From the NCBI GenBank assembly GCA_963799845.1, contig CAWCYI010000005.1, positions 1-64,000 on the forward strand: a DNA stretch of 64,000 nucleotides, in the 5' to 3' direction. Source of the stretch: an uncultured Nitrososphaerota archaeon (GTDB taxonomy: Archaea > Thermoproteota > Nitrososphaeria > Nitrososphaerales > CADDZS01). Shown here piece by piece: positions 4,672-47,049 of the stretch. The stretch's first letter is position 1. Each line of letters starts with the position of its first letter. The translations under genes and the position numbers were made by a program. The notes below the pieces were generated by a model, which worked only from the letters and a program-made list of their open reading frames with translations, did not search any database and was not told the DNA's origin.

Positions 4672-6568
4672 TGTGATCTCTTACCTCTCGAAAAGTCCTA
4701 GCAAGTGGCTTGGATTTCAACACTACTCCGCTACTCTTAATCATTTTTTGAGCCCATTTTTGGCTGAAACTCTTTGCTGCCCAATCCGCAATGTGTAATG
4801 GCTCAGGATATCCGACAACTTCCGGGAATTTATTTTGACACAGAATTGTTAGAATGTTCATGACAATTTCTTGTCCCACATTCGCTTCGGCGGCAGAAAT
4901 GTCAAGCAACGGCTTTATTTTTCCAAAACTTGGAGCACCATCTATTTCAAGCTGGTCACAGAGTTTCTCGTCGATTTTGGGCATAAGGATTCTGTCAATG
5001 AAAAGAACATGACTGTACAAAGGTTGAGAACCAGCTGTTATTCCCGTTCCTCTTCTGATGTAAAACTGACCCAAAGACCTCGCGAACATCCGTTCCGGAG
5101 CGACAAAATTGCGTCGTCCGCCAGTTATCCTAGGCTGTTTGCCTGCTTCAGAATAGAGATGAACCGTTACAAAGGTTGAATCGTAATCCACGGTGCTCCA
5201 TGGGGCAACCATAGTTTGATCATATTCTGCGATCGGTTCTAAGGTGATACGATCGGTCCAAGGAAGAACGACCGGAGTAAATTTGTACTTTCCCAAATCT
5301 TGCATTACACCCAGGTAATTTCGTGTGAAGTATCTCTGTTGAGAGTCTTTCACAACACCAACAAAGAATATTCCTTTTTGCCAACAGAGCTCAATTACAA
5401 GCCTCAACCCTATGCCAATGAGAAAACTAATGTCTTCAGGTGATATCCACCGTTTCCGCTTAAATTGAAAGGAACCTTCCTGAACCTCATTTTCGTAAAG
5501 AAGCATCTTGTCATCCTTCAGGTCGAATAGATTGTGACAAAAGTCTTTGAAAAGAGAAGATACAAAGGACCAACTGCTTTCTGCAATCGGTGTCAATTCC
5601 ACAGTCTCAGAATTTCGGTCGGCAATTTCTTGGTGGACTAGAAATTCATCAATTATTCTCAGAGCCTCTTCTCTTTTCACTCCGGAATCAGCGGCCAGGG
5701 TTGTAACGGAGATGGGTTTTTTGTCGGCAGAGCTAAATAGTTTGTAGATGAATCTTCTCTGTAATGCTAGATAACCTCCGTTGATCTGAGCAGCGGGAAC
5801 ATCAAGTTCATTGTTGTAAGGGTGGGAAGAGGCAACATACGCATCCGTTTTTGTCAGGACCCGGCCAGGGAAAAGACTTGAAGTTCCATTCGTTGAGAAC
5901 TTGTTTCGTATTATTGGAATATCTTCCGCTTTCTCACGGACCCATTGATACTGCAGGCTTATTGACTGATCCCAGAGAATAATGTCGGGGTGCTTCTCCG
6001 ACGAAGCTTCTTTGAATGCCAAATAAATCTCGGCCAATGACATCAGTCGAATGTCAAGATTTGATAGATCGTTCCGATCTTCCTCAGAAGTAGCGAAAGA
6101 AGCTAAAGCCCTCGGATCATTTTTAGTAACATCACCTTCCTTGGTCTCAGTTTCCGAAATATCGCTAACAACATCTCCGAACTCGGCAAAAGGAATGGGG
6201 ACATAAGCGGTTATGCTTATGTCATCGGACAAGTTCTGCTTGCTATACACTACTCGAGGAACTTTTTCGAATCTAATTTCTCCGGGTATCCCAAACGCCA
6301 CGGCGAAGAATATGGCATAGTCTGTGAGCGTGTCCTTGAAGGGGTGACCATCGATTGCTACAAAACGTACAGTATCCCTGCCTAATCTTTTCCTCAGGAG
6401 ATCTGAAGCTTCATTACGAGATGCATGTCGCCGTATCAATGATACCAGAAAATCGTTGTAGAATGTTTTCGCGTTGCCAGCTCGCTCTCGATATAGGCCT
6501 TCATATCGCTTTTGTGAATTCTCAAGTGCTTTTCGATATGAAGAGAGGAGTTTCGATATCTCGGACAA
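4661..6568 (-). CDS. nurA: NurA-family nuclease with a probable wHTH insertion
   Basis: FVAIDG, IILWDQS, GVVKDS and GYPEPLHIAD motifs; overlaps the herA start by 11 bp. Confidence 0.82.
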   Translation of the reverse strand: MSEISKLLSSYRKALENSQKRYEGLYRERAGNAKTFYNDFLVSLIRRHASRNEASDLLRKRLGRDTVRFVAIDGHPFKDTLTDYAIFFAVAFGIPGEIRFEKVPRVVYSKQNLSDDISITAYVPIPFAEFGDVVSDISETETKEGDVTKNDPRALASFATSEEDRNDLSNLDIRLMSLAEIYLAFKEASSEKHPDIILWDQSISLQYQWVREKAEDIPIIRNKFSTNGTSSLFPGRVLTKTDAYVASSHPYNNELDVPAAQINGGYLALQRRFIYKLFSSADKKPISVTTLAADSGVKREEALRIIDEFLVHQEIADRNSETVELTPIAESSWSFVSSLFKDFCHNLFDLKDDKMLLYENEVQEGSFQFKRKRWISPEDISFLIGIGLRLVIELCWQKGIFFVGVVKDSQQRYFTRNYLGVMQDLGKYKFTPVVLPWTDRITLEPIAEYDQTMVAPWSTVDYDSTFVTVHLYSEAGKQPRITGGRRNFVAPERMFARSLGQFYIRRGTGITAGSQPLYSHVLFIDRILMPKIDEKLCDQLEIDGAPSFGKIKPLLDISAAEANVGQEIVMNILTILCQNKFPEVVGYPEPLHIADWAAKSFSQKWAQKMIKSSGVVLKSKPLARTFREVRDHSGR

Positions 6569-6795
6569 GTTTCAACGCGATGGAGTCTTCTACAATCATT
6601 TATTATTTGTCTTGAACCACCTGTCAATCGAAAAGCGAGTACTGTTCTCGATGCCGGTAAATGGAATTCTGACGTGCGCAATCAGTTGTAATGAAATCAT
6701 GCGAAGAAGAGAAGAAGACTTGGTACAAGTAACTGTTTGGTTTAGGTCACAGAGGGATTACTTCCCAATTGGCTCGATGAATTTTAGCCCAATTT

Positions 6796-7084: not shown

Positions 7085-8089
7085 TTGCCTTACGAACAAA
7101 AGACTGTCCCCGTTTCCTCGCTTGTCTTGGACAAAGATAATCCGAGATTTTTTGAACTCAAAGAACTGAAGGGCCGTACAAAACTTTCGGATCAGGATCT
7201 AATGGAGGAACTCTCTCAAGATCCTGACATTATCACCTTGATGAAGTCGATAAAGAGATCGGGGGTCAAGGATCCTATATGGGTAAAAAAACAGGAAGAC
7301 GGGAAGAACCTAGTAATTGAAGGAAACAGAAGAACGTACATTCTTAGACAGTTGCTCGAAGAAAAGGCAGCGCCACCTGATGGGGTCCACTATGACGTAG
7401 TTGATGCCCAAGTATTCCCAGTAGATACTTCCGAGACGGAACTTCTTTTACAACGAGTAAGACTCCAAGCTGGCAAGAAGGACTGGGGTGCTTTTAACGA
7501 GGCTCTGGCAACTTACGAATTGCGAAACACCTTGAAACTTGAAGAGCTAGATATCTCTACCGAGCTTCAAATTTCTATAAAAGAGGTTAGAGATAGAATT
7601 GACAATGTAAAGCAGTTTAAGGCGTACGTAAAAAAGACCGGAGACGCCAATCCGCGCAGGTACTCATTTTTCGCAGACGCCCCAAAGAGGGTTCGAGATT
7701 GGTTCAATGAAGACTCAAAGAACCTTTCTACTTATTTCGAGCTGGTTGCTCCAAACAAGCAAGGATTCCAAAGGATAAGATCGGTAGCCACGAAAGGCGG
7801 ACTTCGAGATTTCGCGACTGTGCTTGATAATCCAGATGCATTGAAGGGTTTCCTCGACGATGACGAAATGACGGTCGAAGATGCTCTTCAGATAACGAAG
7901 GAAAATGATATCACTAAAGAAATGCCCTGGGTTAAGAGAGTCGGCGTGCTCGCCACACAATTCAATGCAATGAGTGAAGAGCAAATTGAAAGATTGAAAG
8001 AGGAAGACAAGATTGTTCGCAGCATAAAGAGACTCTCCCGGGCGTGTGAGTCAGTATTGCAAAAGATAGGGTCGCCGAGTGAAGGCTGA
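7085..8089 (+). CDS. ParB/Srx N-terminal-domain protein
   Basis: LVLDKDNPRF, SIKRSGVKDPIWV, VIEGNRR, followed by an HTH-like segment. Confidence 0.8.
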   Translation: MPYEQKTVPVSSLVLDKDNPRFFELKELKGRTKLSDQDLMEELSQDPDIITLMKSIKRSGVKDPIWVKKQEDGKNLVIEGNRRTYILRQLLEEKAAPPDGVHYDVVDAQVFPVDTSETELLLQRVRLQAGKKDWGAFNEALATYELRNTLKLEELDISTELQISIKEVRDRIDNVKQFKAYVKKTGDANPRRYSFFADAPKRVRDWFNEDSKNLSTYFELVAPNKQGFQRIRSVATKGGLRDFATVLDNPDALKGFLDDDEMTVEDALQITKENDITKEMPWVKRVGVLATQFNAMSEEQIERLKEEDKIVRSIKRLSRACESVLQKIGSPSEG

Positions 8090-8870
8090 ATCTGATGGTC
8101 AGCTTGTCGAATTCTTAGATTATCTGACCAAAACCAAGATTGTCGACAAGAGACAGGTTCGTTTCAGTAGAATCAACGTTCTCAAAGAAATTAGTCGTTT
8201 TTTGGAAGAAACTCGCAATGTTGGAGATTCCTTACTCGTTTTCGAGTCTTGGGAACCGAACCTGCGAAATGCACTCTTAGTTTCGGAATATTCGTTCCAA
8301 TTTAACCCCTACACGGAAGAGCTAGTTGTTCAATGGGTTCCCTCTTGGAACAATATTGAGTGGGCAGCCGAAGTAAGGAATAAGAATCTCACGAGCGAGC
8401 TAGCCGAACGGATTACTGCGCTAACTCCTTTTGAATTCGAGAATCTCATGCATCAAATATTTTCGAGGGTAGCATGGGCTGAAAACGTCAAAGTGACCGG
8501 TAGGAGCAGTGATGGAGGAATAGATTTTGAGGGCATGTTCATTGAAAGACAATCCGGCTTGAAATCCTCATTGTATGGTCAAGCAAAACATTGGAAGTCA
8601 AAAGTCGGATCGGAAACAATCCGCACCTTTATTGGATTCGTCGCAGTGAAAGAAACTTCGAAGTTTCGTTCTTCGGTAGGAGTGTACGCCTGCACCGGAG
8701 GTTTTAGTGAGGAGGCACAGAACGCGATCAAGAAGTCTTCTTTTGTAATACTGCCCTATGATCTTTCTCGGATGGTGAAGGAAATGATCGAAAACAACAT
8801 CGGCGTCGCGGAAGTTGAGACGCACGGGAAGAAACTGGACCTAAACTTTTGGGATGAACTTGAAATATAA
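8079..8870 (+). CDS. Mrr-type restriction endonuclease
   Basis: LTPFEFENL...TGRSSDGGID...QAKHW...VG...IRTF matches the Mrr catalytic D...QxK pattern. Confidence 0.85.
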   Translation: MKAESDGQLVEFLDYLTKTKIVDKRQVRFSRINVLKEISRFLEETRNVGDSLLVFESWEPNLRNALLVSEYSFQFNPYTEELVVQWVPSWNNIEWAAEVRNKNLTSELAERITALTPFEFENLMHQIFSRVAWAENVKVTGRSSDGGIDFEGMFIERQSGLKSSLYGQAKHWKSKVGSETIRTFIGFVAVKETSKFRSSVGVYACTGGFSEEAQNAIKKSSFVILPYDLSRMVKEMIENNIGVAEVETHGKKLDLNFWDELEI

Positions 8871-10485
8871 CGGAATCAGGCCAGCGGGTTACCAATTGGT
8901 CCCACTGACCAAGATTCTTGTAAATGGCCTCAATGGGGTCCTCATTGCCGATGGTGTTGGCGTTGGAAAGACGATCTCATCCTCCTATATCGCGTCATAT
9001 TCATCGTTGAAAATTGGAAAACCTAGTCTAGTCGTGTGTCCACCGGGCCTTATCCAAAAGTGGTTGGAGGAACTTCGCAATAAATTTGGAATAACCTCAT
9101 TTCCAATAAGATCGAATGAGGATTTGTTCACTGCTAAAGACGAGGCAGTTCATCTGCGTCGCGGAAAGCCCATCGTCTATGTAATGTCTAATTCTGTATT
9201 GAGCGTTGCAAATGTTCGGAATTGTCCTTCTTTGGGGGCAATCCTTTTCGATGAAATCCATACGTATCGCAACTTCAAAGCACAATGGTTTTCGGCAGCT
9301 AAAGGATTCTCTACTAGAGCAGAATTCAGAGTTGGGCTGAGCGCGACTCCAATCAACAATTCTCTGGACGACCTTGTATCCGAATTGAACATATTGCTTC
9401 CCTCATTTTCTTGGGAAGCTATCCAAGCGACTGTTCAAGAGCTTTGGGCGAAGGACCCAAATCGACTTACTTTCCCACTCGTTACCCGATTTACAAAGGA
9501 AAAACTTGGAATTCATTTTGCCAGTCGGAAAATCACTACACGCATTGTAAGATACCCTGAGGCTTACGTCCGAGCAGTGAGAAAAAAGATCAGTGAAATT
9601 CAGTCTCATAGAGAAAGATCTTCGATTTATGAGGTGATAACCTACTATCGCATGGCAGCAAGCAGTCCTTACTGCTTTGAGAAAGCCCTACACATCGAAC
9701 TCGATTCAGAATCTGATACCAAAATGAAGGCATTGATTGAGATTCTCGCTGAAATGAATGTTATTACTCAATGGTTGATCTTCTGTGAGTATGAAGAAAC
9801 GGTAAATTTTCTTGCGGATAATCTCAGTGACTGGACTGTATTCAAAATGACGGGAAGTACGCCAGTTTTCGAAAGAGATGAAGTGGTTCGAGCTTTTCGT
9901 TCGACTCCTCGCTCACTTCTTATCATGACATCGGTGGGCTCCGAGGGGTTGGATTTTCAATTCTGCCAAGCTCTAGTGAACTACGATATGCATTGGAATC
10001 CAATGAGAATCGAGCAAAGAATTGGTCGCATCGATCGTCTCGGTCAAGACAAAGATGAGGTATTTGTAGTGAATCTATTGGTATCTGAGAGCATCGATGC
10101 AAGGATACTTGGAGTCATGAAAAGAAAATTGGGAATAATTATGAATTCAATCTTCTCGATAAGTGAAATCTTAGGAGACGTCTCATTAGTTGCGCCTCCC
10201 AGTCAACCCAACCTATTTGATCAATCAACGTTAGATTTTGAATTGAAAGAAAGCAACGAGTTTATGTCGATGATAAAGAATAACCGGAAGTTGGGGAATG
10301 AGGATTATGAAATCTTGTCTGCTATTAATGCCGAATATTGTCTCCCGAACAATCTGATCGAAGTTGCTAATATGCAGGGAGAAGAGATTCCTTGGACAAC
10401 AAAAGGAAAGGTCTGGGAATCATGGCTTCATGAAATTCAATTGGCAACAGATGAACTCAGGCAATTGTTTCTCTACTATTCTTAG
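8854..10485 (+). CDS. SNF2-family (SF2) helicase/ATPase
   Basis: LIADGVGVGKT, FDEIH, LSATPINN, SEGLDFQ, NYDMHWNPMRIEQRIGRIDRLGQ. Confidence 0.92.
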   Translation: MNLKYNGIRPAGYQLVPLTKILVNGLNGVLIADGVGVGKTISSSYIASYSSLKIGKPSLVVCPPGLIQKWLEELRNKFGITSFPIRSNEDLFTAKDEAVHLRRGKPIVYVMSNSVLSVANVRNCPSLGAILFDEIHTYRNFKAQWFSAAKGFSTRAEFRVGLSATPINNSLDDLVSELNILLPSFSWEAIQATVQELWAKDPNRLTFPLVTRFTKEKLGIHFASRKITTRIVRYPEAYVRAVRKKISEIQSHRERSSIYEVITYYRMAASSPYCFEKALHIELDSESDTKMKALIEILAEMNVITQWLIFCEYEETVNFLADNLSDWTVFKMTGSTPVFERDEVVRAFRSTPRSLLIMTSVGSEGLDFQFCQALVNYDMHWNPMRIEQRIGRIDRLGQDKDEVFVVNLLVSESIDARILGVMKRKLGIIMNSIFSISEILGDVSLVAPPSQPNLFDQSTLDFELKESNEFMSMIKNNRKLGNEDYEILSAINAEYCLPNNLIEVANMQGEEIPWTTKGKVWESWLHEIQLATDELRQLFLYYS

Positions 10486-10507
10486 TTTCTTCCGGAAGGT
10501 CCGAGAA

Positions 10508-11506
10508 ATGAGAGCTTCGACCGTTGATTCGAGGGATATCCCCCAAGCAGACTTATTGCAAAAGGTGATCAAAACTGTTGAAGCTGTATCCGACGAAAGG
10601 GATTCCTACCAAGAGATCGCTAACTATCTTGGAGTAGTAGAGAGACAGGGAAGATACTATAGGAGGGCTGCAGAATTACTTGAATTCATCGTCCCCGCTG
10701 GAGTGGGTTGGAATTCTTCGATAATAACTGAACTTGGTAAAGAAATTCTGATTGCGGACGAATCGGTCAGAAATAGAATACTAACTAAGCAGATTCTAAG
10801 GATTCCTGTGATTCAAGGGGTTATTGCGATGCTAATAGGTTCTGATTCTTCAGCGAATAAGACCGATTTAGCTACCGCCATAAGGATATGGTCGGGAACG
10901 ACAGAAATCATGGCCAAGCGACGTTTGGTAACAGTTCTTTCCTGGCTCTCTACGGTCGGGTTAATCGAGAGAGACAACCGTGATGTGATTCTCATCGCAA
11001 AACCGCAGCAATTGGGACTCCTGCGACTTTCTGATATCGAACTTCCAATACTTCCTAAAATAAATGACGTTAAGTTGTTCTCTGCTGCGGTTAGAAAACT
11101 AAAGGAATCTCGTTTCGAAATTAGGCGAGAGATTCAACGAGCTTCGAAGGATCGCTCAGGACCCGAGCACGAAAAACTAAGAGATCTTCTGGCATCTAGA
11201 TTGTGGACATCTGGATCATATTCGTTATGCAATGATTTCATTGACCTTGCCGCAAGATTTGATCAGAAGGATTACTTGTTTGAGGTAACGATCAGTGATT
11301 TGCGAAATAACTACACGCCAAGTGAAATGTTTCAATATTTGGAGGGTGACAACGAGCTAGAATCACTTACTGCTGGGCTTGTGATTTGTTCGGATAAGAC
11401 TGAAGGATCTGAAAGACCAAACGAAAAAGGTCGAGCAGTGATTTGGCCCTCTAATGACGGAAAATTCTCTGTTAGCCCTAGCAGCAACAATCTACCATTC
11501 CTTTGA
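10508..11506 (+). CDS. wHTH plus PD-(D/E)xK restriction-endonuclease-like protein, probably inactive paralogue
   Basis: IPQAD...ERQGRYYRRAAELL N-domain; C-terminal IDL...YLFEVTIS lacks the Lys of ExK; ATG at 10508 preferred over 10364. Confidence 0.7.
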   Translation: MRASTVDSRDIPQADLLQKVIKTVEAVSDERDSYQEIANYLGVVERQGRYYRRAAELLEFIVPAGVGWNSSIITELGKEILIADESVRNRILTKQILRIPVIQGVIAMLIGSDSSANKTDLATAIRIWSGTTEIMAKRRLVTVLSWLSTVGLIERDNRDVILIAKPQQLGLLRLSDIELPILPKINDVKLFSAAVRKLKESRFEIRREIQRASKDRSGPEHEKLRDLLASRLWTSGSYSLCNDFIDLAARFDQKDYLFEVTISDLRNNYTPSEMFQYLEGDNELESLTAGLVICSDKTEGSERPNEKGRAVIWPSNDGKFSVSPSSNNLPFL

Positions 11507-11611
11507 CTTTGGAATAGCTGATAATTTATGAGGATATGTCCAGACCGCTAGTATCTCTTTGTTCTTAGAATATTAGAAGAAGAACGAACTTCTTAATAGC
11601 GATGCGTAAAC

Positions 11612-12514
11612 ATGCGGACGCAGGATATCGTGCCTAAGTCGCAGGTTGAGCAGACAGTAATCCAACAACATTTGGACGATTATAGACCACTGAAAAAACC
11701 GTTCCTCAAATGGGCGGGAGGCAAGGCGCGACTCATAGACGAGATAGCGTCCGTGATGCCGACTAATTATGAAAAATATGTTGAACCTTTTCTTGGTGGT
11801 GGATCGGTCTTCTTTCGGTTGTGCAACGGAAGGTCGATTCTTTCAGATTCTAATACAGAATTAATGAATTGTTACAAAATTGTCAAGTCGAAAGTTGATG
11901 ACCTGATAGTTTCTTTAGACTTCTTCAAGGGTATGAAGTATGACGAGAAAACTTACTACGATGTTAGGAAATTAGACGAGAAAGACTTGTCTGAAGTTGA
12001 CAGAGCGGCTAGATTCATCTATCTCAATCGAACGGCGTATAACGGACTCTACAGAGTAAATCATTCAGGGCAATTCAATGTGCCCTTCGCCAGATACAAG
12101 AGTTTGGCTTTACCCTCTGATAAAATTCTTACAGAGGCAAGTGACGCGCTTAGAAGCTCAAAATTGATTTGCGCAGATTTTGAAGAGGTCTTACGAAAAT
12201 ATTCGGAGTCCGATGATTTTGTTTTTCTGGACCCCCCATATCCTGCCGTCAGCAAATATTCAGATTTTAATCGTTACACGAAGAATTTTTTCACTAAGGA
12301 TGATCATCGTAGACTTGGCAAACTCGTCCTAGACTTGGATGATAAAGGATGTAAAATCGTTATAACGAACGCCGAACACCCTTTGATTAGAGAAATATAT
12401 TCGGACGATAGGTTTGTGATAAAGACAGTTCTTGCGCCGCGATTCATAAATTGTAAAGGAGACAAAAGAGGAAATGTCCCTGAGTTACTCATCCGAAATA
12501 AATGGACTAATTAG
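11612..12514 (+). CDS. Dam-like N6-adenine DNA methyltransferase (M1)
   Basis: KPFLKWAGGK, EPFLGGGS, YNGLYRVN..GQFNVP, FLDPPY. Confidence 0.95.
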   Translation: MRTQDIVPKSQVEQTVIQQHLDDYRPLKKPFLKWAGGKARLIDEIASVMPTNYEKYVEPFLGGGSVFFRLCNGRSILSDSNTELMNCYKIVKSKVDDLIVSLDFFKGMKYDEKTYYDVRKLDEKDLSEVDRAARFIYLNRTAYNGLYRVNHSGQFNVPFARYKSLALPSDKILTEASDALRSSKLICADFEEVLRKYSESDDFVFLDPPYPAVSKYSDFNRYTKNFFTKDDHRRLGKLVLDLDDKGCKIVITNAEHPLIREIYSDDRFVIKTVLAPRFINCKGDKRGNVPELLIRNKWTN

Positions 12515-13529
12515 CGAATCTAACTTCCCACCGACTAAGTTCATGGGAAGCAAGCAGGCTTTACTTCCTTTCATATTCGAACACATAGGTAAGCTGAAAT
12601 TTGACACTGTTCTTGATGCCTTTTCGGGTTCTGGATGTGTGGCATACGAATTCAAACTACTTGGAAAGACCGTGACAACCAACGATTACTTGCATTTCTC
12701 TTACACAATTTCCAAGGCGTTGATCGAAAATAACAACTTCAAGCTGGATGACAAGTTTCGTGACGTTATCATGCGCGAGCGAAAAGACGCGGACACCAAG
12801 GTTCGAGATAATTATGAAATTTACTTTTCGAAATCGGAGTGCATGTTTCTAGACTCCCTGTGGAAAAATATTTCAGAAATTGAGAACGAATATCTTCGTA
12901 GCATCGCAATCGCCGCTACATGCCGCGCCTGTCAAAAGCGATACCCACGAGGCATATTCACCGTAACTCAAGGAAAAGGAAAGGATGGAAGAAAGGACTT
13001 TCGAACCAACCTGCGACAGCACTTCAAGAATGCGCTCCAATTGTACAATGGAGCTGTTTTTGATAACGGGTGTCGCAATGAGGCATTATGCATGGACACA
13101 TTGAAGATGGAAAAAAGGGGCTTCGATCTCGTTTATTTCGATCCGCCATATTGGAGTCCATTCTCAGACAATGACTACGTGCGTCGTTATCACTTCGTCG
13201 AAGGATATTCTGTCTATTGGGATGGTTTGAGCATCAACGAAAAAACGAAGACGAAGAAGTTCGACTCGTATTTCTCGCCGTTTTCGAAATTACAGAACGC
13301 GAAAAATGCGCTTCGAACCCTTTTTGACAGGTATTCCGACTCGATTCTCGTCGTCTCTTATTCTTCGAACAGTTCTCCCGACAAGACGGAGCTTTACGAC
13401 ATGTTGAGTGACGTGAAGAAGGACGTGAAAGTTTTCGAAAAAGACCATACTTACTCGTTTGGAAACCAAGGATTCCGAAAAGGAGACAATAGAAACCGTG
13501 TTCAAGAGTACCTTTTTGTCGCACAGTAA
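12474..13529 (+). CDS. D12-class N6-adenine DNA methyltransferase (M2, FokI/NlaIII-like)
   Basis: KFMGSK, DAFSGSG, YFDPPY, DYVRRYHFVEG, VSYSS; exact start uncertain. Confidence 0.92.
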   Translation: MSLSYSSEINGLISESNFPPTKFMGSKQALLPFIFEHIGKLKFDTVLDAFSGSGCVAYEFKLLGKTVTTNDYLHFSYTISKALIENNNFKLDDKFRDVIMRERKDADTKVRDNYEIYFSKSECMFLDSLWKNISEIENEYLRSIAIAATCRACQKRYPRGIFTVTQGKGKDGRKDFRTNLRQHFKNALQLYNGAVFDNGCRNEALCMDTLKMEKRGFDLVYFDPPYWSPFSDNDYVRRYHFVEGYSVYWDGLSINEKTKTKKFDSYFSPFSKLQNAKNALRTLFDRYSDSILVVSYSSNSSPDKTELYDMLSDVKKDVKVFEKDHTYSFGNQGFRKGDNRNRVQEYLFVAQ

Positions 13530-13541
13530 TGGGCAGAGATA

Positions 13542-14567
13542 TTGTCGTTAGATACAGCTGGTTATCCTCAAGCAGACAAGTTAGAAAATGTAATTCTCAC
13601 CGTAGAAGCTATCAACGAAGGTTATCATTCTGATCGAGAAATTGGTATCCAGCTGGGATTAGAACGTGGAAGATCATACGACGAAAGACAAGGAAGATAC
13701 CATCGAAAAGCAACTGAATTACTTGGTCTGACGAGGCGCGCATCGGAAAACCATTCGGTTGTCACTCAATCTGGTACTGTGTTTCTACGGAGCGACCAAC
13801 AAACAAGACGCGAGATGCTTACAGAAAGGGTGGTCAATCTTCCAGTTTTCAGAAATATTTTGGCAATGCTGGAAAGTTCGGGTGGGCGGACGTCCACTAC
13901 ATCAATCGAAAATTCACTAAGAGTTATGGCAGATACCACAGCATCGATGGCGCATCGACGACAGCAGACAATGACCTCGTGGCTAAACGATTTAGGCATA
14001 ACAAGAAAAACAGGTAACACGGTCATTCTTGAAGACATTCCTGCTTCAGTGCAGAGTATAGAAGTTCCTGACATCAACATTCCCGTTTTACCGAGAGCGG
14101 GTGACTTGAGACGTTTTGAGGAAGTCAATCGAAGAGTATCTTTAGCGCGTGAAACAATTATCCATCGAATCGATGCTGCTCTGATGGAACGACGAAATGC
14201 AACCCATCAGAGACTCACCAATCTGATGTCCGCCAAAATACGTCGAGCTGGCGCAGTGCCGACCTACAATGGACTAATCGACTTAGCTACTCACATTGAG
14301 AATCATGACTACATCATCGAAGTGAAGTCATCTGTAACAAGAATGCGAAATCAAATTCGCCGAGGAATTTCGCAACTTTACGAGTATAGGTATCTCCAGG
14401 GGCTACCTAACGCGAGGCTCGTTCTATTCATAGAAAGACAATTGGATCGAGAAGACCGTTGGATGCTTGATTATGTCATACATGATAGAGGTATATGCAT
14501 TGTTTGGGATGATAGGGAAAACGAATTGTTCACTTTAGATGCATGCGAAGACCTGCCTTTTCTGTAA
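13542..14567 (+). CDS. wHTH plus PD-(D/E)xK restriction endonuclease, apparently active paralogue
   Basis: YPQAD...ERQGRYHRKATELL; catalytic IDL...IIEVKSS and QIRRGISQLYEY. Confidence 0.8.
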   Translation: MSLDTAGYPQADKLENVILTVEAINEGYHSDREIGIQLGLERGRSYDERQGRYHRKATELLGLTRRASENHSVVTQSGTVFLRSDQQTRREMLTERVVNLPVFRNILAMLESSGGRTSTTSIENSLRVMADTTASMAHRRQQTMTSWLNDLGITRKTGNTVILEDIPASVQSIEVPDINIPVLPRAGDLRRFEEVNRRVSLARETIIHRIDAALMERRNATHQRLTNLMSAKIRRAGAVPTYNGLIDLATHIENHDYIIEVKSSVTRMRNQIRRGISQLYEYRYLQGLPNARLVLFIERQLDREDRWMLDYVIHDRGICIVWDDRENELFTLDACEDLPFL

Positions 14568-19780: not shown

Positions 19781-21382
19781 TTAATATTTTTCTACTTTTC
19801 CGCAGTTCTTGCAAACCCGGCCATCTTGCGGATTGTTCACTTTGTCCCATATTACTGTGTATTCCCATTCTTCGTGTTTACAACTAGAAACATTTGATTC
19901 AATTCTTTTTTCAGTTATTTTTCCATCGACTATCGCCAATAATCTCTGAACGGTTCCTCTCGTCTTTTCATCATCAATGTATGAAAGCACCTCAAGATCT
20001 GAAGGAACTGGTAATCCAAATCTCTTTGATAAAATGGTCTTGACAATCTCAAATGTGAACCTATTCATGGGATCGACTTTTCCTCGAATCATCCATTCAC
20101 TTATCTCGTCAGCCAATTCCTTCCGCTTCAGAATATCCAATGAAATATTTGTAATTGGCTCCCTCAATTCTGCAAACTCCTCGTCACGATACACATCGAC
20201 AATAGTTTTACGTACGTCTCGATGATCAACAAAGCTTGCGTCAATTGTGAGACGATCTCGTTTCCAAGTTTGGCTTAAAGCTAGTATGCGAATTATTGAT
20301 CTTAAGAATAGTCGAGGATTGAAGCGTCCACCTCGTTTCGTGCGATGTGAAAGACTAATTATGAATTCTCGCGTGAACGGTGTTAACTCAAGAGAATAGT
20401 CGGGTCTTGAAAATGACAAGATACCCCTTGTCATTTCTATGATGTCTTCATCAGAAGGATTCGGAAACTCGATTTTTTCAAGGCTCCCTTTGATAATATA
20501 GTATCGTATTTTGATATTAGAGCTCCTTAGTCGTCTATCTACCTCTGTTCTGAAAGTGAGTATGAATGAAATACGGTGATCAGCTATTACATCTAGTAAG
20601 TATTGGTCAAGCCTATACTGACTTACTGATCTCCAATCCTCCGACTCATCTATTACGAGCATGATGTGAATACCGGCTTTGAGGCATACTTCCCTGAAGA
20701 CCTCAAAGTCTCTCAAGTTCTTTCTTGGCGATCTAAACAGGGCATTGAATGAATTCAGAAACTCTAAGGAAGCGATTGGATAAACAAGCCGTCCGAATTC
20801 ATAAGCGAAATCGTAATCGACCTTCCCTGGTAGATCGTCATGGGTCGCGAGATTCTCCACGTATCCAGATAATGCCCTAGATAACCCATCCAAGTCGCTC
20901 TGCTGATGAGTAGGAATAAGTTTTCGGTTTGGACTTCGTTCGAGCATATCGGCCGCAATTTTTTGAAGTATCTCGTGAAGTGATTCTAACCTTAACTCAT
21001 GAACGTCCTCTTTCTCGCCTCGCGTTGGGTCCCACGTAATCGGAAGGCCGTTTGCTACGGTATAATCAAGCAAGTCCTTTGGAGAGGTCGGCTTTTCGCA
21101 GTATAGCGCTAAAATTCTATTCTTACCTACTTCCATCTGGGGTTCGTTGAATAGGCTCGAATTCAGAAGATAGCAAAGATTGTAAAGCAGTGTTGACTTG
21201 CCTATACCCCAATACTCGTTGACGAATCCGTTCACTACGTTTCCAGTTCTGATTTGAGTCGTTAACTTCTCGGCAAGAGATGAAATTCTTCTATCACTGC
21301 CATATGCTTTGAGGGTATAGTCGCCGAGAAAAAGTGGAATGTTTCCTACTAAGTGATAATCGCTCCAAGTAAATTGGTTCAA
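19781..21382 (-). CDS. P-loop AAA+ ATPase, paralogue B, with C-terminal Zn ribbon
   Basis: Walker A EYWGIGKST, Walker B LVIDESEDW, FNPRLF lid motif, terminal CKH...CKNCGK. Confidence 0.8.
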   Translation of the reverse strand: MNQFTWSDYHLVGNIPLFLGDYTLKAYGSDRRISSLAEKLTTQIRTGNVVNGFVNEYWGIGKSTLLYNLCYLLNSSLFNEPQMEVGKNRILALYCEKPTSPKDLLDYTVANGLPITWDPTRGEKEDVHELRLESLHEILQKIAADMLERSPNRKLIPTHQQSDLDGLSRALSGYVENLATHDDLPGKVDYDFAYEFGRLVYPIASLEFLNSFNALFRSPRKNLRDFEVFREVCLKAGIHIMLVIDESEDWRSVSQYRLDQYLLDVIADHRISFILTFRTEVDRRLRSSNIKIRYYIIKGSLEKIEFPNPSDEDIIEMTRGILSFSRPDYSLELTPFTREFIISLSHRTKRGGRFNPRLFLRSIIRILALSQTWKRDRLTIDASFVDHRDVRKTIVDVYRDEEFAELREPITNISLDILKRKELADEISEWMIRGKVDPMNRFTFEIVKTILSKRFGLPVPSDLEVLSYIDDEKTRGTVQRLLAIVDGKITEKRIESNVSSCKHEEWEYTVIWDKVNNPQDGRVCKNCGKVEKY

Positions 21383-21388
21383 GTTTTC

Positions 21389-22958
21389 TCAATAATTCAA
21401 ATTGATACTATCAAATGGTCTCATTAGAGTCCTTACGAGCTCTCTTGCAGGCTGATAGCGAGAAGGAATCTCTCCTAGCGCAGTGAAAAAAAAGAGACGG
21501 CTTGCGAATCTTAGAATCCTTGGAAATAGTGAGTGCGAGAACCTGATCCATTTCTTGCAAAGAGAGGCCAATCCTAGATGCTAAAAGGAACCTGAAGTCT
21601 GGAAAATAATAGGCCCCCTGAGAGTCACGGAATCGAGAGGGTCCCTTGAACATATCGAGAACCGATTGTGCCACAAACTCTGTTTTTACCGGTGCCTTGC
21701 TGGCAATGAAAACATTAGATTGGCAGTATGACTCGGGGCCCACCTCGTCATGATAGACTGAATAATTAAAGTCGACAATCTCGGAGTTCGGAAGATTATC
21801 CTGAAGTGAGAGTATGTTCTTCCTTTGTCTTGCAGTTTGTAAGGTATCGTCGTCCACAAAGCGCTGAAGGAATGAGTAGTGGCGCATAGTCCTTTCTCTT
21901 TTGGACGTCGGCCAAGAATTGTATTCTTCCAAGTCATTAATATTTGATAGATGAACCAGCGAATTAGTCAACCATGAAGCGAAAGCATAATTTTCGATTA
22001 AGCGAATAGAACCTGAGCTCGCATGTCTGAGGTAGGTTTCTAGGACGGGACCAAAAAAAGCAAAACCCAGTCCAGGTCCTTTTAGGGCGTTAGATGCGAT
22101 CAGGCTGTTGACGCTACAAGAGCCCTCTATTTTTTCGTAGAACCGAATATTGTCATCCAGAGTTCCCGGCCTTGCATCAACGGGTGATTCCCAAACCTCA
22201 TGTTCTCTTTCGAATTCTTCCAGAATTCCTAATACACTTGCAACCTGAGAAAATGATAATTGTTCACGTCTTAGAATGATTCTTCCCACCTTTTCGATAT
22301 CCTGGCCATTTGTGATCTTCTTCATTTCTTCAGCAAGCAAACCGTTCCCAATAATTGTGAAGTAACCGTTGGAATAGTCAGCAAGACCTAGCTGAATCAG
22401 AGCTCGTCCGAATTGGTTCTCCCCAAGCTTTCCCCTAACTTCTGCCGTCAGATTTGGATTCTTAAAGCCGTCTAGGAGAGCCTTGCATTGAGCGGCTTTG
22501 TAGCGAGCATAGTTTTCGCCGATACCGTTCGTAGAGGAAGCCGTGAGTTGGCCTGTATCGATGAGTATGAATGTGACCAAATCAGAACTTAGCGGATGAC
22601 AACAGTACTTGGGCGAGTTAGAATCACCAACAAGAAATGTGATTCTTCCACGAAAAGGAATATGGTATTCAACAAATCCCGAACGCTTATGCCAAGCTTT
22701 CGCATAATCTTGCCAAGCGGAAGAGATGAGATGAGGTACTAGTTTCCCCTTTTCGGATCGATAAAGACTTGTTCTTAGAAGAAAATACTCCAACGTTCTA
22801 TGAGATCTTATTTTCTCTTGAACGGAAATAATACCCGCTTCTTTTTCAAGTTCCGGAGAAGACCTCAAAGACTTTATGTCAATTGGTTCATTTCGATTTT
22901 TATCAAGAAATTCAGAAAATTTCTTTGCGTCAATCTTTCCCAACATTGCCCGAACCAC
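21389..22958 (-). CDS. Hypothetical protein with probable wHTH segments
   Basis: 515-aa ORF tightly spaced between the two ATPases; LIQLGLADYSNGYFTI and FPDFRFLLASRIGLSLQEMDQVL look like wHTH parts; likely one-base indel near the T8 run (~21490) moves the true stop to 21389. Confidence 0.7.
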
Positions 22959-22964
22959 AGGGTC

Positions 22965-24365
22965 TCATTCTGCTCTGTCACTTTGGAATATCTCTGCGGT
23001 TTGGTTCGCAGCTTTCAATGCATCCGCGATAATTCGAATAACTTCGTCATTCTCCAAAATCTCTGCTGTCAAGGCAGGTGAGGTGCGAGGCCAAGACCGG
23101 CTCTTGTCAAGAATGTTAACTAGAGCACTCACAAAAGTTCTAGGATTGAACGTTTCTTGACCTCTCCGCGTTTTCTCCGCAAGCGCTTTTATGAAATCAT
23201 CAGAAAGGGGGAAAGCCGATTCTTTTCCACTCCTTGCTGTGCTTAGAATCCCTTCCGTAAGTTTCTTAATATTGTCAAACGACATTTTTCGCATTTCCAG
23301 ACTGTCCAATCTTTCGTAAATAGTCTGGTATGTCCCTAGGGCCGAAGTCGAAGCTATTTTGTCCAATACTTCTGTTCTGAACACAAGAACGAGAGAAACA
23401 TATGATTCTGCGTCAACTACAAGATCATGCAAATCTCTATCAATTTTATCGCGAACAACTTGGTTCCAATCTTCAACTTCGTCAAATACGATAAGAACAA
23501 AAGTATTCGTCGCTCTGAGAAGCTTTTCAAAGGCTAGGAAGACCCTAAGATTCCTTTCTGGTGTATCGAACAAAGCCTTTCTGGCTGCTAGAAAGTCATT
23601 CGAGTTCAATGGGAAAAGTAGTTTTGGGAATTGTTGCTCAAAGGTCTCCTCGCTTACCCTCAAATTTCCTTTCTTCATTTCCATAGAAGTCATTAGCGTT
23701 CTAGCATAATATCGCATAAGTTCGCCAGCTTCGCTATAGGTTTGATCATTTTTTTGCTGAAGTTCGTCAATTCTTTTCATAAATTCTGACGTCTTCAATG
23801 AATCCAGAGATACGATTTGATCGAATAGTTCCTTGCGCGACACTGCTCCTCCCACGGCCGCATCTACCAAACCCTTCTTCTTGATCTCGTGAATAGACTT
23901 TCTTAAGAACACAAAGGCTAACTTTCTAAGCGATTTCTGAAAGAGCTCAATTCTGAGCTCTACAGCTTCATCTTTCGGACGATTTAGATCCCACGTTACT
24001 GCAAGACCATTTTCGTAGCTTCGATCTAATAATTTGGTGCGTTTCTCAGGTTTCTCCTGAAAGAACGCTAGAACATGTCTGTAAATGCCTTTTTCAGGTG
24101 ATTCAAGTTCGTCACCAAAGAAGAGGCGATCATTGATAATGTAACAGATATTGTAGAGGAAAGTAGACTTGCCACTACCCCAGTAGGCAACTAGCTTCAT
24201 CAACATCCTAGTGGACGATTTCGAGTATCGTGACACATTATTTAGAAATTCATTAATCTCATCGTCTCGTCCGAATGCCCGTATAGTATAATCAGCTAGC
24301 GAAATAGCTGGTTTTCCGTCCATTTCGTAATCCTTCCAAGTCCAATCGTGCTTCAGTTCCGACAT
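22965..24365 (-). CDS. P-loop AAA+ ATPase, paralogue A
   Basis: Walker A AYWGSGKST, Walker B IVFDEVEDW, FNPRTF lid motif. Confidence 0.82.
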   Translation of the reverse strand: MSELKHDWTWKDYEMDGKPAISLADYTIRAFGRDDEINEFLNNVSRYSKSSTRMLMKLVAYWGSGKSTFLYNICYIINDRLFFGDELESPEKGIYRHVLAFFQEKPEKRTKLLDRSYENGLAVTWDLNRPKDEAVELRIELFQKSLRKLAFVFLRKSIHEIKKKGLVDAAVGGAVSRKELFDQIVSLDSLKTSEFMKRIDELQQKNDQTYSEAGELMRYYARTLMTSMEMKKGNLRVSEETFEQQFPKLLFPLNSNDFLAARKALFDTPERNLRVFLAFEKLLRATNTFVLIVFDEVEDWNQVVRDKIDRDLHDLVVDAESYVSLVLVFRTEVLDKIASTSALGTYQTIYERLDSLEMRKMSFDNIKKLTEGILSTARSGKESAFPLSDDFIKALAEKTRRGQETFNPRTFVSALVNILDKSRSWPRTSPALTAEILENDEVIRIIADALKAANQTAEIFQSDRAE

Positions 24366-24421
24366 TCTGATTGGTCAGCTTCGGCAACGGTTATTTGGCC
24401 TCGATAATAAGCGTTGGCAAT

Positions 24422-25810
24422 ATGCCAGTCGAATTGGCCTTCTATGGAGGAGTCAATGGAACTATCGGTGGCAATGCTATCGTGGTCAAGACCGTCTTCG
24501 ATGGCAAAGTTCGACAATACCTGTTTGATTTTGGAATCCCGCCGCGCGAATATGGGCTTGCTCTGTCTTTGGGATTAGACCAAAATTGCAGCCTAGACGA
24601 TTTAATCCAGATGAAGCTAGTTACCAGATTTGAAGATTTTAATTTCAGGGCATGCTTCATAACTCACGCACACAAAGATCACTATCTCGCTTTGCCTGCA
24701 TTGTTTAACTCCAAGAGCAGACCGCTCACGATTTGGGCGAGCAAGACCACATCAAGAATAATAAAACAATACTTCAACAAAATTGAATTTACAGAGAGCA
24801 TTCTGCATTCTGATCCGATTGCAGCGGGACAGTATTATCAGGATCTACATTCGGAATTACCGGGAGGATTTTCCGTAGTGCCCTATCCGGTCGATCATGA
24901 TGTGCCTGGTGCTTGTTGTTATAGTGTTTTGACTGACAAATCAATGATAACATATACTGGTGATTTCAGAGATCATGGACCTTTGAGCAAACTTATGTCA
25001 AGACAGTTCTGGGTCTATCTGAATGACATCGCTAAGAGCAGAAATAGAATTTTGATCACAGAAGGAACCAACTACGGCCTTCCTTATTCTCATTGGTCCG
25101 ATGAACACTTTCAGGACAGAATTCGAGACATTTTAGAGGTTTATTCCGATGAATTGATTGTTTTTACGCTTGATAGAGATGGAGTTTGGGATTTACTTAC
25201 ATGCGTGAAGGCGATTCTATTTTCCCAGCCAATCACTAAGAGAAAGATCATCGTAAGTCAAGAAATCATTACGTTCTTATCTAAAGTGGAGCAATCATTT
25301 GTAGATGATTATGCTCATGTGATTGATGGAATGGAAGCAAACTGTACGACGTACCTTAGAAGGGACAAATTTATCGTTGTGAATCTTAATTCAGAGGATC
25401 GCGCCCAAGGCTTACTAAGGGAGATTGCGAAATCGCCAAGCGATTTTATCATAATTGCGACAAAAAAAGATTCAATGCGGATAATGAGGGGAGTGTCTAT
25501 GTTTCAAACCAGGCCAGGCGGGTGCTGCGTAATGAGTTTTTCAAGTGGGGACGAGGATCCCGAGGAGAATTTCGCTCATCAATTTGCTAAATCTGCTGCA
25601 GACTTGGGCTACTCTGTTGAGAGAACCAACGCTCCCGTGAGAGGTCACATATCACCTCACAAATTGTTAGATGTCATTCAAAATTTACGCCCCAATAAGA
25701 TCTTCATAGTGCATACGCTATCGCCACTTGGATTGCAGGATTTTATCTTGAGGCATACGAATGCGGAAGTCATAGTTCCAAGTCTGAATACGCCGATGCA
25801 AATAGAATAA
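24422..25810 (+). CDS. MBL-fold beta-CASP/RNase J-like hydrolase
   Basis: FYGGV..IGGN, FDFG, THAHKDH, DHDVPGA, YTGDFR, ITEGT, GHIS, IVH; ATG at 24422 preferred over 24371. Confidence 0.88.
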   Translation: MPVELAFYGGVNGTIGGNAIVVKTVFDGKVRQYLFDFGIPPREYGLALSLGLDQNCSLDDLIQMKLVTRFEDFNFRACFITHAHKDHYLALPALFNSKSRPLTIWASKTTSRIIKQYFNKIEFTESILHSDPIAAGQYYQDLHSELPGGFSVVPYPVDHDVPGACCYSVLTDKSMITYTGDFRDHGPLSKLMSRQFWVYLNDIAKSRNRILITEGTNYGLPYSHWSDEHFQDRIRDILEVYSDELIVFTLDRDGVWDLLTCVKAILFSQPITKRKIIVSQEIITFLSKVEQSFVDDYAHVIDGMEANCTTYLRRDKFIVVNLNSEDRAQGLLREIAKSPSDFIIIATKKDSMRIMRGVSMFQTRPGGCCVMSFSSGDEDPEENFAHQFAKSAADLGYSVERTNAPVRGHISPHKLLDVIQNLRPNKIFIVHTLSPLGLQDFILRHTNAEVIVPSLNTPMQIE

Positions 25811-30616: not shown

Positions 30617-31474
30617 TCAATTTTCCGTGTGGATCGAAGCCTCATTTTCATCAAACTTCCGTAGAAAAAGATCGGCGATTTCTTCAGGGTTTTTCTTTGC
30701 TGCGTCTTGATAGTTAATATTGGCACTGAGGCCGGGAACTATTACTCCCGAGAATCTTACTGGCAAAATATACTCGCCAGTCTTCAACTGTTTCGCCAAT
30801 GCACTCCTGCGCTCATGAGAGGTCCACATTTTCTTGATATATTCATCTGAAACAAACATAATACACCAAAGGGATTTCGCACTGAACACATCATCAAAGT
30901 ATTCTGCCATGTCTTTCCCCCACAGTGTCGCTTCTTGTTCACTATCTCGAAAAATTCTGAGTTGTTGTTTCTTCTCCTTCAAGTGTTTGTAAACACGTTC
31001 TACGTATTGCTCTTGCTCTCTTGCGTACGAAAGAGCAACATCGTAAACTATGTTTCTCGGCAGAATATCCGATGGTTCCCAAGTTGTGAGCCCGAATAAG
31101 TTCCCAATTTTCTTCACAAAGCTTTGAATGACAAATCTCTCGTTGGGATTCTCAATTCTTTCAAAGATGCCAGGCGCATCGCTTAGAAAAGATGCGAGCA
31201 ATTGTTCGCCATAAGCCGAGGATGAGGAAATGGATGTGAGTTGAAATCCTTCGCTTTTTCGTTCCAACAACAAGGCAGAGGAAGGAAATCCTGATCGTTC
31301 TATTATATCTCCGTTAGTAAGTTCCAAATTGAAAGGAGTTATTGACTGAATTTTCTTTACTGCATCAGTAAGAATAAAGTTGTAACCTTTGGGGGCTAAT
31401 ATAGCACTGAGCTCAGAAATTGTAAGCTCCTTCTTAGATGGAATCAGTAACCGACTATCAATAATCAATGTCAA
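30617..31474 (-). CDS. TIR-domain protein with an uncharacterised N-terminal domain
   Basis: YDVALSYAREQEQYVERV, IFRD, FVSDEYIKKMWTSHERRSA (catalytic Glu position retained), YILPVRF. Confidence 0.9.
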   Translation of the reverse strand: MTLIIDSRLLIPSKKELTISELSAILAPKGYNFILTDAVKKIQSITPFNLELTNGDIIERSGFPSSALLLERKSEGFQLTSISSSSAYGEQLLASFLSDAPGIFERIENPNERFVIQSFVKKIGNLFGLTTWEPSDILPRNIVYDVALSYAREQEQYVERVYKHLKEKKQQLRIFRDSEQEATLWGKDMAEYFDDVFSAKSLWCIMFVSDEYIKKMWTSHERRSALAKQLKTGEYILPVRFSGVIVPGLSANINYQDAAKKNPEEIADLFLRKFDENEASIHTEN

Positions 31475-45659: not shown

Positions 45660-46627
45660 TTGAATTGCTTGTCTTGCGGAAGAGGAGTGTCGATTCCTGA
45701 GGCAACTTTCTGTCCTTATTGCGGAACAAAGAATCTTACTGAAAAACCACTTGACCGCTTACAGAAACTTAAGTTAAACATAGAAAAATCTGGATTCCCA
45801 CTTGAATTGGATGTGAATGATATTCTCGAAAAGAGAAAGTGGACAACTACACCTAGTTTCTATTTTGTCGATGATGATTCGGGCAAACTTAGGGAGATTG
45901 ATAACTATGCATTCCCACCTCAAGATGACATTCTGAAAAAGATGATTCAGCCTGTGTCGGTAAGTGTCAATCTTCTCGTTGAATGCAAGAAACTTGTGAA
46001 TGAAGCGGTAGTTATCTTTGGAATGAACAAGAAAGTTGTCACATACTATGACTTTCACGGACAAATGCAAGAATTTCCTGACATCATAGAAAAGAGACAA
46101 AGAACTGGAAATCCTCTGAAAGAGTTTGATTTAGGGTGGTTCCTCGGACATGATGTTGGCTTTCATTATCAAAAATTGGCAGGAGATATCGGTGTAGACT
46201 CACGGGATGAAATATGATAAACCACCGAAGGAAGAAGAGGATGAATTGGTCTATGACGGGATGATGAAACTTGTAAAAGCCCAAAGTTATGAAGTCGGGC
46301 AAAATATCATGAGACAGAAGGAACTTGCCCACGGGTATTATCCGTTATTTTTTACATTCCTTACTCTCGTAATTGATGGAATGATTGTATATTCAAAGAA
46401 TGGAATTGAACCGAAACAAATCCAACACGGAATCGCAAGCATCGGAAACAGGCCCAACTATTACGGTGAAGTTATGGGGGCACTTGATTGATGTTGTTAC
46501 GAAAGATTACTTTGAAGAATATTTGAAACTCCTTGAATATGAAACAGAAAAACTTGTTTCACGCCTCGAAGGAAAGAAAGGTGATTTGACAGCATTCTTG
46601 AAGAAACCAGACCCGAACGTTTACTGA
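45660..46627 (+). CDS. Zn-ribbon plus PD-(D/E)xK nuclease-like protein (two frameshifts)
   Basis: CLSCG..FCPYCG; KSGFPLE...REID...LVECKK; continues through ORFs 46207-46491 and 46385-46627. Confidence 0.65.
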
Positions 46628-46938
46628 TTCAGATCTTGATTAACTCTAATCGCGCAAAACTGGTCTAGAGACAGCTGCGATAGTCGCGATCATTGCAAAT
46701 AACGGGCCTGCAGCTTGTTACACGCTAAAGTCTAGAATGAATGTCAACGGTCAGTAATCTGATAACTCAAGGCGGTGTTCATAAAATAGACGATGGTTAT
46801 TTCCTTAGTTTTCACGGAAAAGAACGACTAAAGGAATCCAAAAAGTAAGTTAGTCTTAACAGTCCGAAAAGTCAATCCCTGACCACTAAAGTAGGTAATA
46901 TCTATTCGCAATACCAGCCTTTGATTTGATCGCACGAA

Positions 46939-47049
46939 TTGGCGCCGATTTCCCAAAGAATCATCTTAATCGTTGTACTTACACTAATTGTAATAGTCGT
47001 AGTAGTCGTTTATCGCGCCTTGAAGGGTGAAAAATTAACGAATCTGTAA
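46939..47049 (+). CDS. Single-TM microprotein (36 aa)
   Basis: Hand translation from TTG: MAPISQRIILIVVLTLIVIVVVVVYRALKGEKLTNL*. Confidence 0.4.
   Translation: MAPISQRIILIVVLTLIVIVVVVVYRALKGEKLTNL

Follow-up and report, generated by a model that had tools for sequence, protein, structure and literature searches.

Layout of the four-gene cassette

The window considered here, 64,000 nucleotides (positions 1 to 64,000 of the forward strand) of contig CAWCYI010000005.1 from an uncultured Nitrososphaerota archaeon (assembly GCA_963799845.1), carries a compact cassette of four genes at positions 19781-25810. Three of them are encoded on the minus strand: ATPase A (22965-24365, 466 amino acids), an AAA+ protein predicted to belong to the ORC/Cdc6 clade; an orphan multidomain protein termed Mid (21411-22958, 515 amino acids); and ATPase B (19781-21382, 533 amino acids), paralogous to A, its Walker A and Walker B motifs intact. 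The gaps between these genes are short, 6 nt from A to Mid and 28 nt from Mid to B. The fourth gene is transcribed divergently, on the plus strand, and encodes a putative nuclease of the metallo-β-lactamase (MBL) fold and β-CASP family.

The start of the nuclease gene deserves a comment. The longest open reading frame (ORF) begins with a TTG codon, only 5 bp from the start codon of ATPase A (24371-25810, 479 amino acids). Alignments of its homologues begin at residues 8-22 of this long ORF, and the protein read from the ATG at 24422 matches the homologue N-termini in the alignment; the ATG is therefore the likelier start (24422-25810, 462 amino acids). It follows that the spacer separating the divergent genes is most likely 56 bp long (24366-24421), and it is presumably a promoter region shared by ATPase A and the nuclease. 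Related loci described below show the same head-to-head arrangement; counted from the longest-ORF starts, their spacers measure 33 bp (L003), 34 bp (L010), 37 bp (L008), and 65 bp (L002).

A preliminary description of this DNA had placed the four ORFs at the coordinates found here, with about 56 bp between ATPase A and the nuclease gene; this distance holds when counted from the ATG but shrinks to 5 bp when the longest ORF is considered. The same description had proposed that the two ATPases are paralogues. BLASTP analysis agrees with this, aligning them at 30% identity over 446 columns (E 6e-52), and all six motif pairs listed at the time are visible in the alignment (WTWKDY/FTWSDY, DYTIRAFG/DYTLKAYG, YWGSGKST/YWGIGKST, NGLAVTWD/NGLPITWD, DEVEDW/DESEDW, and FNPRTF/FNPRLF).

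Conservation and rarity

Metagenome contigs were scanned with the ATPase alignment, yielding 15 loci (L001-L015) whose gene content was established by tblastn. Ten of these, L001-L010, hold relatives of ATPase A, Mid, or ATPase B. The complete set, with the nuclease gene divergent from A-Mid-B, is found in the same order and orientation in L001, L002, L003, L004, L008, and L010. In the four remaining loci the contig ends within the cassette, and what is present conforms to this arrangement: L005 retains the nuclease, A, and half of Mid; L006 and L007 the nuclease and A; L009 the end of Mid and B. The possibility that relatives of the ATPase trio would never lie near an MBL gene, which the preliminary description had considered damaging to its proposal, can be dismissed, as the nuclease gene is located upstream of A on the opposite strand in all nine loci holding A. 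Identities to the window proteins amount to only 41-53% for A, 34-40% for Mid, 26-36% for B, and 31-41% for the nuclease, and the shared arrangement therefore goes beyond chance and reflects conservation and not recent copying. The four genes are thus one conserved module.

This module is rare. A search with ATPase A returned 27 clusters, including itself, and the families of Mid and of the nuclease are equally small (24 representatives and 25 proteins, respectively). Searched with a profile, 1.84 billion representative proteins yielded these 24 proteins for Mid and no distant related family. Among species-representative genomes, none of 600 pattern matches proved to be an ATPase relative, while one of eight pattern matches for Mid did prove to be a relative of it. 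This locus, L020, belongs to a metagenome-assembled genome of Ca. Bathyarchaeia and contains, at positions 3042-6696, Mid and B without A or the nuclease. Its Mid aligns only from residue 74, its B is broken up into two ORFs, and the locus borders on a fragment of an integrase, so that L020 looks like the remnant of a decaying cassette copy. Sampling 400 other genomes of the phylum with the Mid profile gave no match. No relatives were found in 72,556 plasmid records, in 50,697 phage records, or, among 112 and 122 pattern matches, in IMG/VR viral contigs.

The ATPase pair

An AlphaFold2 model of ATPase A, built from a 28-sequence alignment, exhibits an AAA+ fold with a predicted local distance difference test score (pLDDT) of 90.9. 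In this model, the AAA+ core and lid are superposable on those of the ORC/Cdc6 clade, the Walker A and B motifs are in place, and a helical insert follows strand 2. The insert comprises about 150 residues of helices between the strand 97-103 and the Walker B strand 288-294; it is all-helical, and no β-rich insert follows the AAA+ core. The model also contains C-terminal helices at 389-459, in the part of the protein that in the ORC/Cdc6 clade holds a winged-helix DNA-binding domain, and only a single row (1w5t_C) aligns across this C-terminal region. Profile comparison with the PDB gave Cdc6 as the sole match, at an E-value of 0.12, and Pfam analysis of the ATPases returned AAA_22, AAA_16, and BrxC_BrxD, all below threshold. 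As judged from the model, ATPase A is best described as an ORC/Cdc6-clade AAA+ protein with a large helical insert, which retains and sharpens the label of twin AAA+ ATPases given previously.

Both paralogues look catalytically competent, since Walker A, with its lysine at K66, and Walker B show no variation across the A family and since the corresponding residues of B (G59, G61, K62-S63-T64, and I244-D245-E246) are invariant in eight orthologues. A maximum-likelihood tree was computed from 22 ATPase ORFs of the window and of L001-L015, L020 and the database matches of ATPase A being excluded. It separates A (9 rows, support 90/93), B (8 rows, 69/84), and a variant belonging to the sister cassette presented below (5 rows, 100/100), with A and B together parted from that variant at 100/100. 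The A and B subtrees display a broadly parallel branching. The separation of the three groups indicates that the A/B duplication is older than the spread of the cassette. To note, ATPase B of the window terminates in a Cys/His-rich tail of the C..H...CxxC type (encoded at 19781-19880) that is present in this copy only and in none of seven orthologues, and that may represent a zinc ribbon specific to the lineage.

The orphan protein Mid

Mid has no match in Pfam or NCBIfam. Its predicted structure reaches a pLDDT of 72.3, and Foldseek returned nothing for it at E<=1e-3. Weak winged-helix-like pieces can be recognized. The invariant residues that Mid has in common with its counterpart in the sister cassette are H99, C120-H121-P122, C412-x-S414, and P453-x-F455-R456-F457. 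Two other leads were set aside: ESM Atlas matches (best 0.89 for the whole of Mid, to unnamed clusters, and 0.79 for residues 300-500) were discarded, and an assignment of Mid as a cysteine protease based on His99 and Cys120 was dropped for want of any fold support.

The β-CASP nuclease

Pfam identifies Lactamase_B_2 in the fourth protein (E 1.8e-8). Nine residues are invariant in nine orthologues: H82, H84, D86, and H87, which form the HxHxDH motif, followed by H159, D181, E214, H409, and H431. We take these to be MBL motifs 2-4 and β-CASP motifs A-C, the latter being E214, H409, and H431, and this assignment agrees with the alignment to the structure 2az4. A profile of the family matched, in the PDB, 2az4 (EF2904, 5.3e-21), the archaeal RNases J 5haa (1.4e-8) and 5ws2 (1.5e-8), and Artemis (1.3e-7). 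Sequence comparisons thus identify a β-CASP enzyme with its catalytic motifs intact, in line with the earlier assignment of this protein; the intact HxHxDH that had been reported is indeed present in the translation, as HAHKDH. All MBL and β-CASP motif positions are conserved as in RNase J, aCPSF, Artemis, Cas14, and EF2904.

The similarity to RNase J, and the fact that some sources name the orthologues "mRNA degradation ribonuclease J1/J2", raise the question of whether this is simply the RNase J of the cell, engaged in housekeeping RNA metabolism beside unrelated ATPase genes. Such a role is extremely improbable and already contradicted by several results. The scores against the RNase J models of NCBIfam, 36.7 bits for TIGR00649 (cut-off 400) and 37.3 bits for RnjA (cut-off 820), lie far below the equivalog and subfamily cut-offs. 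Two other RNase J-like paralogues are encoded on contig C4 of the same genome; with TIGR00649 scores of 78 and 100 bits they surpass the cassette protein (37 bits), which is therefore not the best candidate for the housekeeping enzyme. The same comparison speaks against the reservation expressed in the preliminary description, that the gene might group with the single housekeeping RNase J. Moreover, the cassette nuclease belongs to a discrete subfamily of 25 proteins scoring at least 512 bits, more than 400 bits away from the next relatives, which reach 84 bits. In rarity this subfamily equals the ATPases, and, unlike other β-CASP nucleases, it is always paired with the ATPase operon; the profile of its partner Mid gave no match in the 400 other genomes of the phylum mentioned above.

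A sister cassette with other nucleases

The five remaining metagenome loci contain a related operon. In L011, L013, L014, and L015, and partially in L012, it encodes an ATPase, a 294-amino-acid protein, a Mid homologue, and a Csx1 protein of the CARF-HEPN type, in this order (for example at L013:4381-11432). The operon possesses a single ATPase, a homologue at 21-23% identity. Its Mid homologue, of about 520 amino acids (Mid2), aligns with Mid over 435 columns with an hhalign probability of 98.4% (E 4.8e-15), and both share the motifs CHP, C-x-SN, and YYP-x-FRF. Csx1 is recognized by PADLOC (E ~1e-42) and by the Csm6 HEPN family of Pfam. The 294-amino-acid protein harbors an invariant D..D..EAK pattern; motif inspection makes it a putative PD-(D/E)xK-like nuclease, while its profile gave no match in the PDB at E<=10. 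In each of the three sister loci whose flanks extend far enough (L013, L014, and L015), Csx1 is followed by a fusion of DpdA-like and DUF6884 domains (573-574 amino acids), which in L013 matches the PADLOC DpdA model with an E-value of 1.7e-86. The sister cassette was not found in the genome of the window.

Thus, the two cassettes have a homologous ATPase and a homologous Mid in common and differ in having either a β-CASP nuclease beside two ATPases or a CARF-HEPN RNase and a putative restriction endonuclease (REase) beside a single one, with a DpdA-like neighbor. The ATPase and Mid therefore make up a conserved core, around which nucleases are exchanged. Defence systems are usually built in this way, their core staying the same while the nucleases vary.

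A more speculative extension concerns signaling. Csx1 depends on a cyclic-oligonucleotide ligand, and the flanks retrieved for the sister loci showed no Cas10; hence Mid, which has an invariant His/Cys cluster and a YYPDFRF motif, or the ATPase might make or relay a small-molecule signal. The ATPase and Mid would then be the sensor core of an unrecognized archaeal immune family with interchangeable effectors. We consider this quite unlikely as it stands; if true, it would represent a CRISPR-independent activation of CARF effectors built on ORC/Cdc6 ATPases.

The sister cassette also bears on the substrate of the β-CASP enzyme, which may be RNA, the system then degrading viral or host transcripts and leading to abortive infection or dormancy. 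Apart from EF2904, the nearest solved relatives of the enzyme are the two archaeal RNases J, its best NCBIfam matches are RNase J models, and the sister cassette carries the RNase Csx1. A parallel exists in the type VII CRISPR-Cas effector Cas14, a β-CASP protein described as a ribonuclease in the part of PMC13069675 that was available. On the other side, the DNA nuclease Artemis matches the cassette enzyme almost equally well, and the PD-(D/E)xK-like protein of the sister cassette would be a DNase. An RNA target is further disfavored by the typical binding of duplex DNA by ORC/Cdc6 ATPases and by winged-helix modules, and by the fact that the substrate of such a nuclease is not readable from its sequence. 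Altogether, an RNA-targeting system appears rather unlikely.

Genomic context

The window cassette resides in a defence island extending over about 2.8-31.5 kb, which comprises genes for HerA-like, Mrr, and SNF2 proteins, two D12 methylases, a HATPase_c_3 protein, an ADP-ribosylglycohydrolase (ARH), a DGQHR+GIY-YIG protein, and a TIR protein; downstream of the island are thermopsin and peptide-transporter genes, which, together with a homologue named Candidatus Bathyarchaeia, indicate an archaeal origin. The G+C content of the island is 0.40-0.46 (2-kb windows up to 36 kb), as compared to 0.47-0.48 in the two largest contigs of the genome, C4 and C6. The flanks of the cassette vary from locus to locus and consist mostly of restriction-modification or other defence genes: type I M and S genes in L002, an Eco57I-like methylase and an integrase in L008, HsdR and YgjP in L003, a PLD-SNF2 protein in L004, and a Schlafen/AlbA_2 protein in L001. 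L010 combines a DUF6884 protein, a FokI-cleavage-domain protein, a BrxC/D-type ATPase, and HerA. The window neighbors ARH, DGQHR, and HATPase have no tblastn counterpart in any locus. A gene of the HerA/DUF87 family abuts the cassette in L010, L004, and L012, and as a remnant in L013; the HerA gene of the window, 15 kb from the cassette, belongs to the same family as these (28-41% identity).

Several of these features would also fit a module that serves an integrated mobile element of archaea in its replication, segregation, or maintenance, with ORC-like initiators accompanied by a processing nuclease: the ORC/Cdc6 fold of ATPase A, the patchy and rare distribution, the integrase genes near the cassette in L008 and L020, the HerA/FtsK-type ATPases adjoining it in L010, L004, L012, and L013, and the lower G+C content of the island. 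Such an origin is nevertheless very unlikely. No relative was encountered in the plasmid, phage, and IMG/VR viral-contig collections; the flanks are composed of restriction, TIR, and similar genes and not of element backbones; the Csx1 of the sister cassette is a dedicated immune effector; and the cassette moves between different islands as a unit of no more than four genes.

Other genes of the window

In the left part of the island, a HerA/DUF87-type ATPase (2854-4671, minus strand, 605 amino acids) overlaps a 635-amino-acid protein without family (4661-6568, minus strand). The following block, 7085-14567, encodes a weakly ParB_N-like protein, an Mrr-type nuclease, an SNF2 helicase, two DUF7226/AAA_assoc_C proteins, and two D12-class adenine methylases, and is probably a separate restriction-modification-like system. 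The segment 16114-19564 contains a HATPase_c_3 (GHKL) protein with a weak match to the restriction enzymes BbrUII/HgiDII, then a 166-amino-acid protein of unknown function, together with the ADP-ribosylglycohydrolase (E 1.3e-76), which is convergent with ATPase B. On the other side of the cassette, the segment 26556-28986 encodes a stand-alone Lrp/AsnC ligand-binding-domain protein (78 amino acids), a CxxC...CxxC protein (65 amino acids), and a fusion of DGQHR (DndB/DpdB-like) and GIY-YIG domains (486 amino acids); the fusion looks like a single-gene nuclease candidate. A TIR-domain protein (30617-31474, minus strand; TIR_2, E 6.8e-13) marks the island on its right side.

Further along the 65-kb contig, the G+C content is 0.46-0.49 at 36-46 kb, 0.40 at 46-48 kb, and 0.51-0.57 from 48 kb onward, and the shift within 46001-50000 may mark a junction between regions differing in origin. 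A P-type ATPase at 50793-53058 (minus strand) appears as two overlapping ORFs, E1-E2_ATPase (52099-53058) and a HAD hydrolase (50793-52283), a split that may result from a frameshift or an assembly error. Among sequencing runs, two DNA runs of a single study contain part of the window, and no RNA run containing it was listed.

Comparison with known systems

None of the four proteins matches any family of PADLOC-DB v2.0.0 (2023) at E<=1, in agreement with the earlier view that the cassette does not correspond to a catalogued system. The phosphorothioate system Ssp (SspABCD-E), with which it had been compared, is a fitting comparison at the level of folds: in the available part of PMC10853773, SspC is a Cdc6/Orc AAA+ ATPase paired with SspB, a protein with three winged helix-turn-helix (wHTH) domains, and the two act in defence together with nucleases. 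The ORC/Cdc6 fold of ATPase A and the weak winged-helix-like pieces of Mid recall this pair. In contrast, the cassette possesses two ATPase paralogues and a β-CASP nuclease and lacks a cysteine desulfurase or an SspD-type gene. None of the four proteins matches the Ssp models of NCBIfam, and Pfam scans of the neighboring ORFs, on which no Ssp-specific profile was run, detected neither SspA nor SspD.

The SspB-SspC pair is one of the reasons to consider the cassette as the restriction arm of a modification-dependent system distinguishing self from non-self, the DNA modification being provided by a variable neighbor such as a methylase, a DGQHR protein, or a protein resembling the 7-deazaguanine transglycosylase DpdA, as in Dpd, Ssp, Dnd, or BREX. 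The flanks supply others. A DpdA-like/DUF6884 gene is located beside the cassette in L010, directly downstream of the nuclease gene on the same strand after a 155-bp gap, and its relatives follow Csx1 in L013, L014, and L015. In L008 (39-bp gap) and L002, genes for N6-methylases lie downstream of the nuclease gene and share its strand. In the window, the DGQHR (DndB/DpdB-like) + GIY-YIG gene lies 1.7 kb downstream of the nuclease gene; three small unrelated ORFs, however, separate the two. The neighbor is also different in every locus, being a Schlafen/AlbA_2 gene in L001 and convergent unrelated genes in L003 and L004, and no DpdA homologue was found in the genome of the window (tblastn, 1e-4). 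Restriction-modification genes, moreover, lie beside anything in defence islands, and this arrangement of labor is judged unlikely.

The closest architectures described so far may be the Orc/CDC6 conflict neighborhoods, which were predicted from comparative genomics. According to the portion of PMC10853773 at hand, these are mobile operons in which an Orc/CDC6 ATPase is associated with a nuclease and a fast-evolving protein with two to four wHTH domains, often together with HerA/FtsK. One class has an REase nuclease together with an ATPase that carries an inactive REase as an insertion separating the AAA+ core from the wHTH; in another, a KAP NTPase accompanies two Orc/CDC6 genes, and Walker B is broken in the second of these (same source). 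The HerA-family genes abutting the cassette in L010, L004, L012, and L013 are reminiscent of these neighborhoods. The differences are that both cassette ATPases keep Walker B, that the predicted insert is all-helical, that KAP and REase genes are lacking, and that the nuclease is a β-CASP enzyme. The statement that the architecture could not be named thus holds with respect to the catalogue and has to be tempered by these related neighborhoods combining Orc/CDC6, multi-wHTH, and nuclease genes. The literature covered, which included the available parts of PMC12839542, PMC12988326, PMC4012209, and PMC10853773, contains no account of a β-CASP nuclease combined with an ORC/Cdc6 pair; the supplementary neighborhood lists of these sources may hold relevant entries.

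BREX also contains an ATPase of this kind, BrxD, a standalone ORC-Cdc6 AAA+ protein in the available text of PMC12839542. The corresponding Pfam model, PF10923, matches ATPase A only, at 18.4 bits for a cut-off of 22.2, and the NCBIfam model BREX_BrxD reaches 16.3 against 350. Across the whole genome, PF08665 (PglZ) gave one 26-bit match on C4 and none on C5, the contig of the window, so that the reported absence of pglZ extends from the window to its entire contig. In contrast to BREX, the cassette has no BrxHI helicase, and neither PglZ nor PglX is found in it or on the contig. In summary of these comparisons, the cassette is set apart by its β-CASP nuclease, its two intact ATPases, and its orphan Mid family.

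Proposed function and significance

The cassette is best explained as a rare, horizontally mobile module of archaeal defence islands that performs surveillance of nucleic acids, dependent on nucleoside triphosphates, coupled to restriction; we estimate the probability of this explanation at roughly 0.6. In the mechanism that we envisage, the paralogues A and B would assemble on nucleic acid together with Mid, probably as a hetero-oligomer. Mid would provide target recognition through its winged-helix-like modules and its conserved His/Cys cluster. Binding or hydrolysis of ATP on foreign nucleic acid might then license the divergently transcribed β-CASP nuclease, which would degrade the DNA or the transcripts of the invader. 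The sensed substrate would, by preference, be DNA, while the target of the nuclease may be DNA or RNA. These mechanistic details deserve much less confidence than the explanation as a whole.

Some considerations weigh against it. Complex formation, substrate, and defence function are what we infer, the last of these from neighborhood and domain content only, and the role of Mid as the recognition subunit is a guess. ORC/Cdc6 ATPases are also the replication initiators of archaeal mobile elements. Many of the metagenome loci may come from related organisms or habitats and are then not fully independent of each other, and L020 shows that the four-gene set is not always complete. Finally, the catalogue in which no family was matched by the four proteins is the 2023 version of PADLOC-DB.

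The cassette offers a compact, four-gene candidate for the poorly charted field of archaeal immunity, with an orphan protein family at its center, and the sister cassette, which carries other effectors, is its natural comparison partner. If the proposed function is correct, ORC/Cdc6-type ATPases would gain a further role in immunity, and β-CASP nucleases one as immune effectors beyond type VII CRISPR-Cas; the cassette could also show how ATPase cores are coupled to swappable nucleases.

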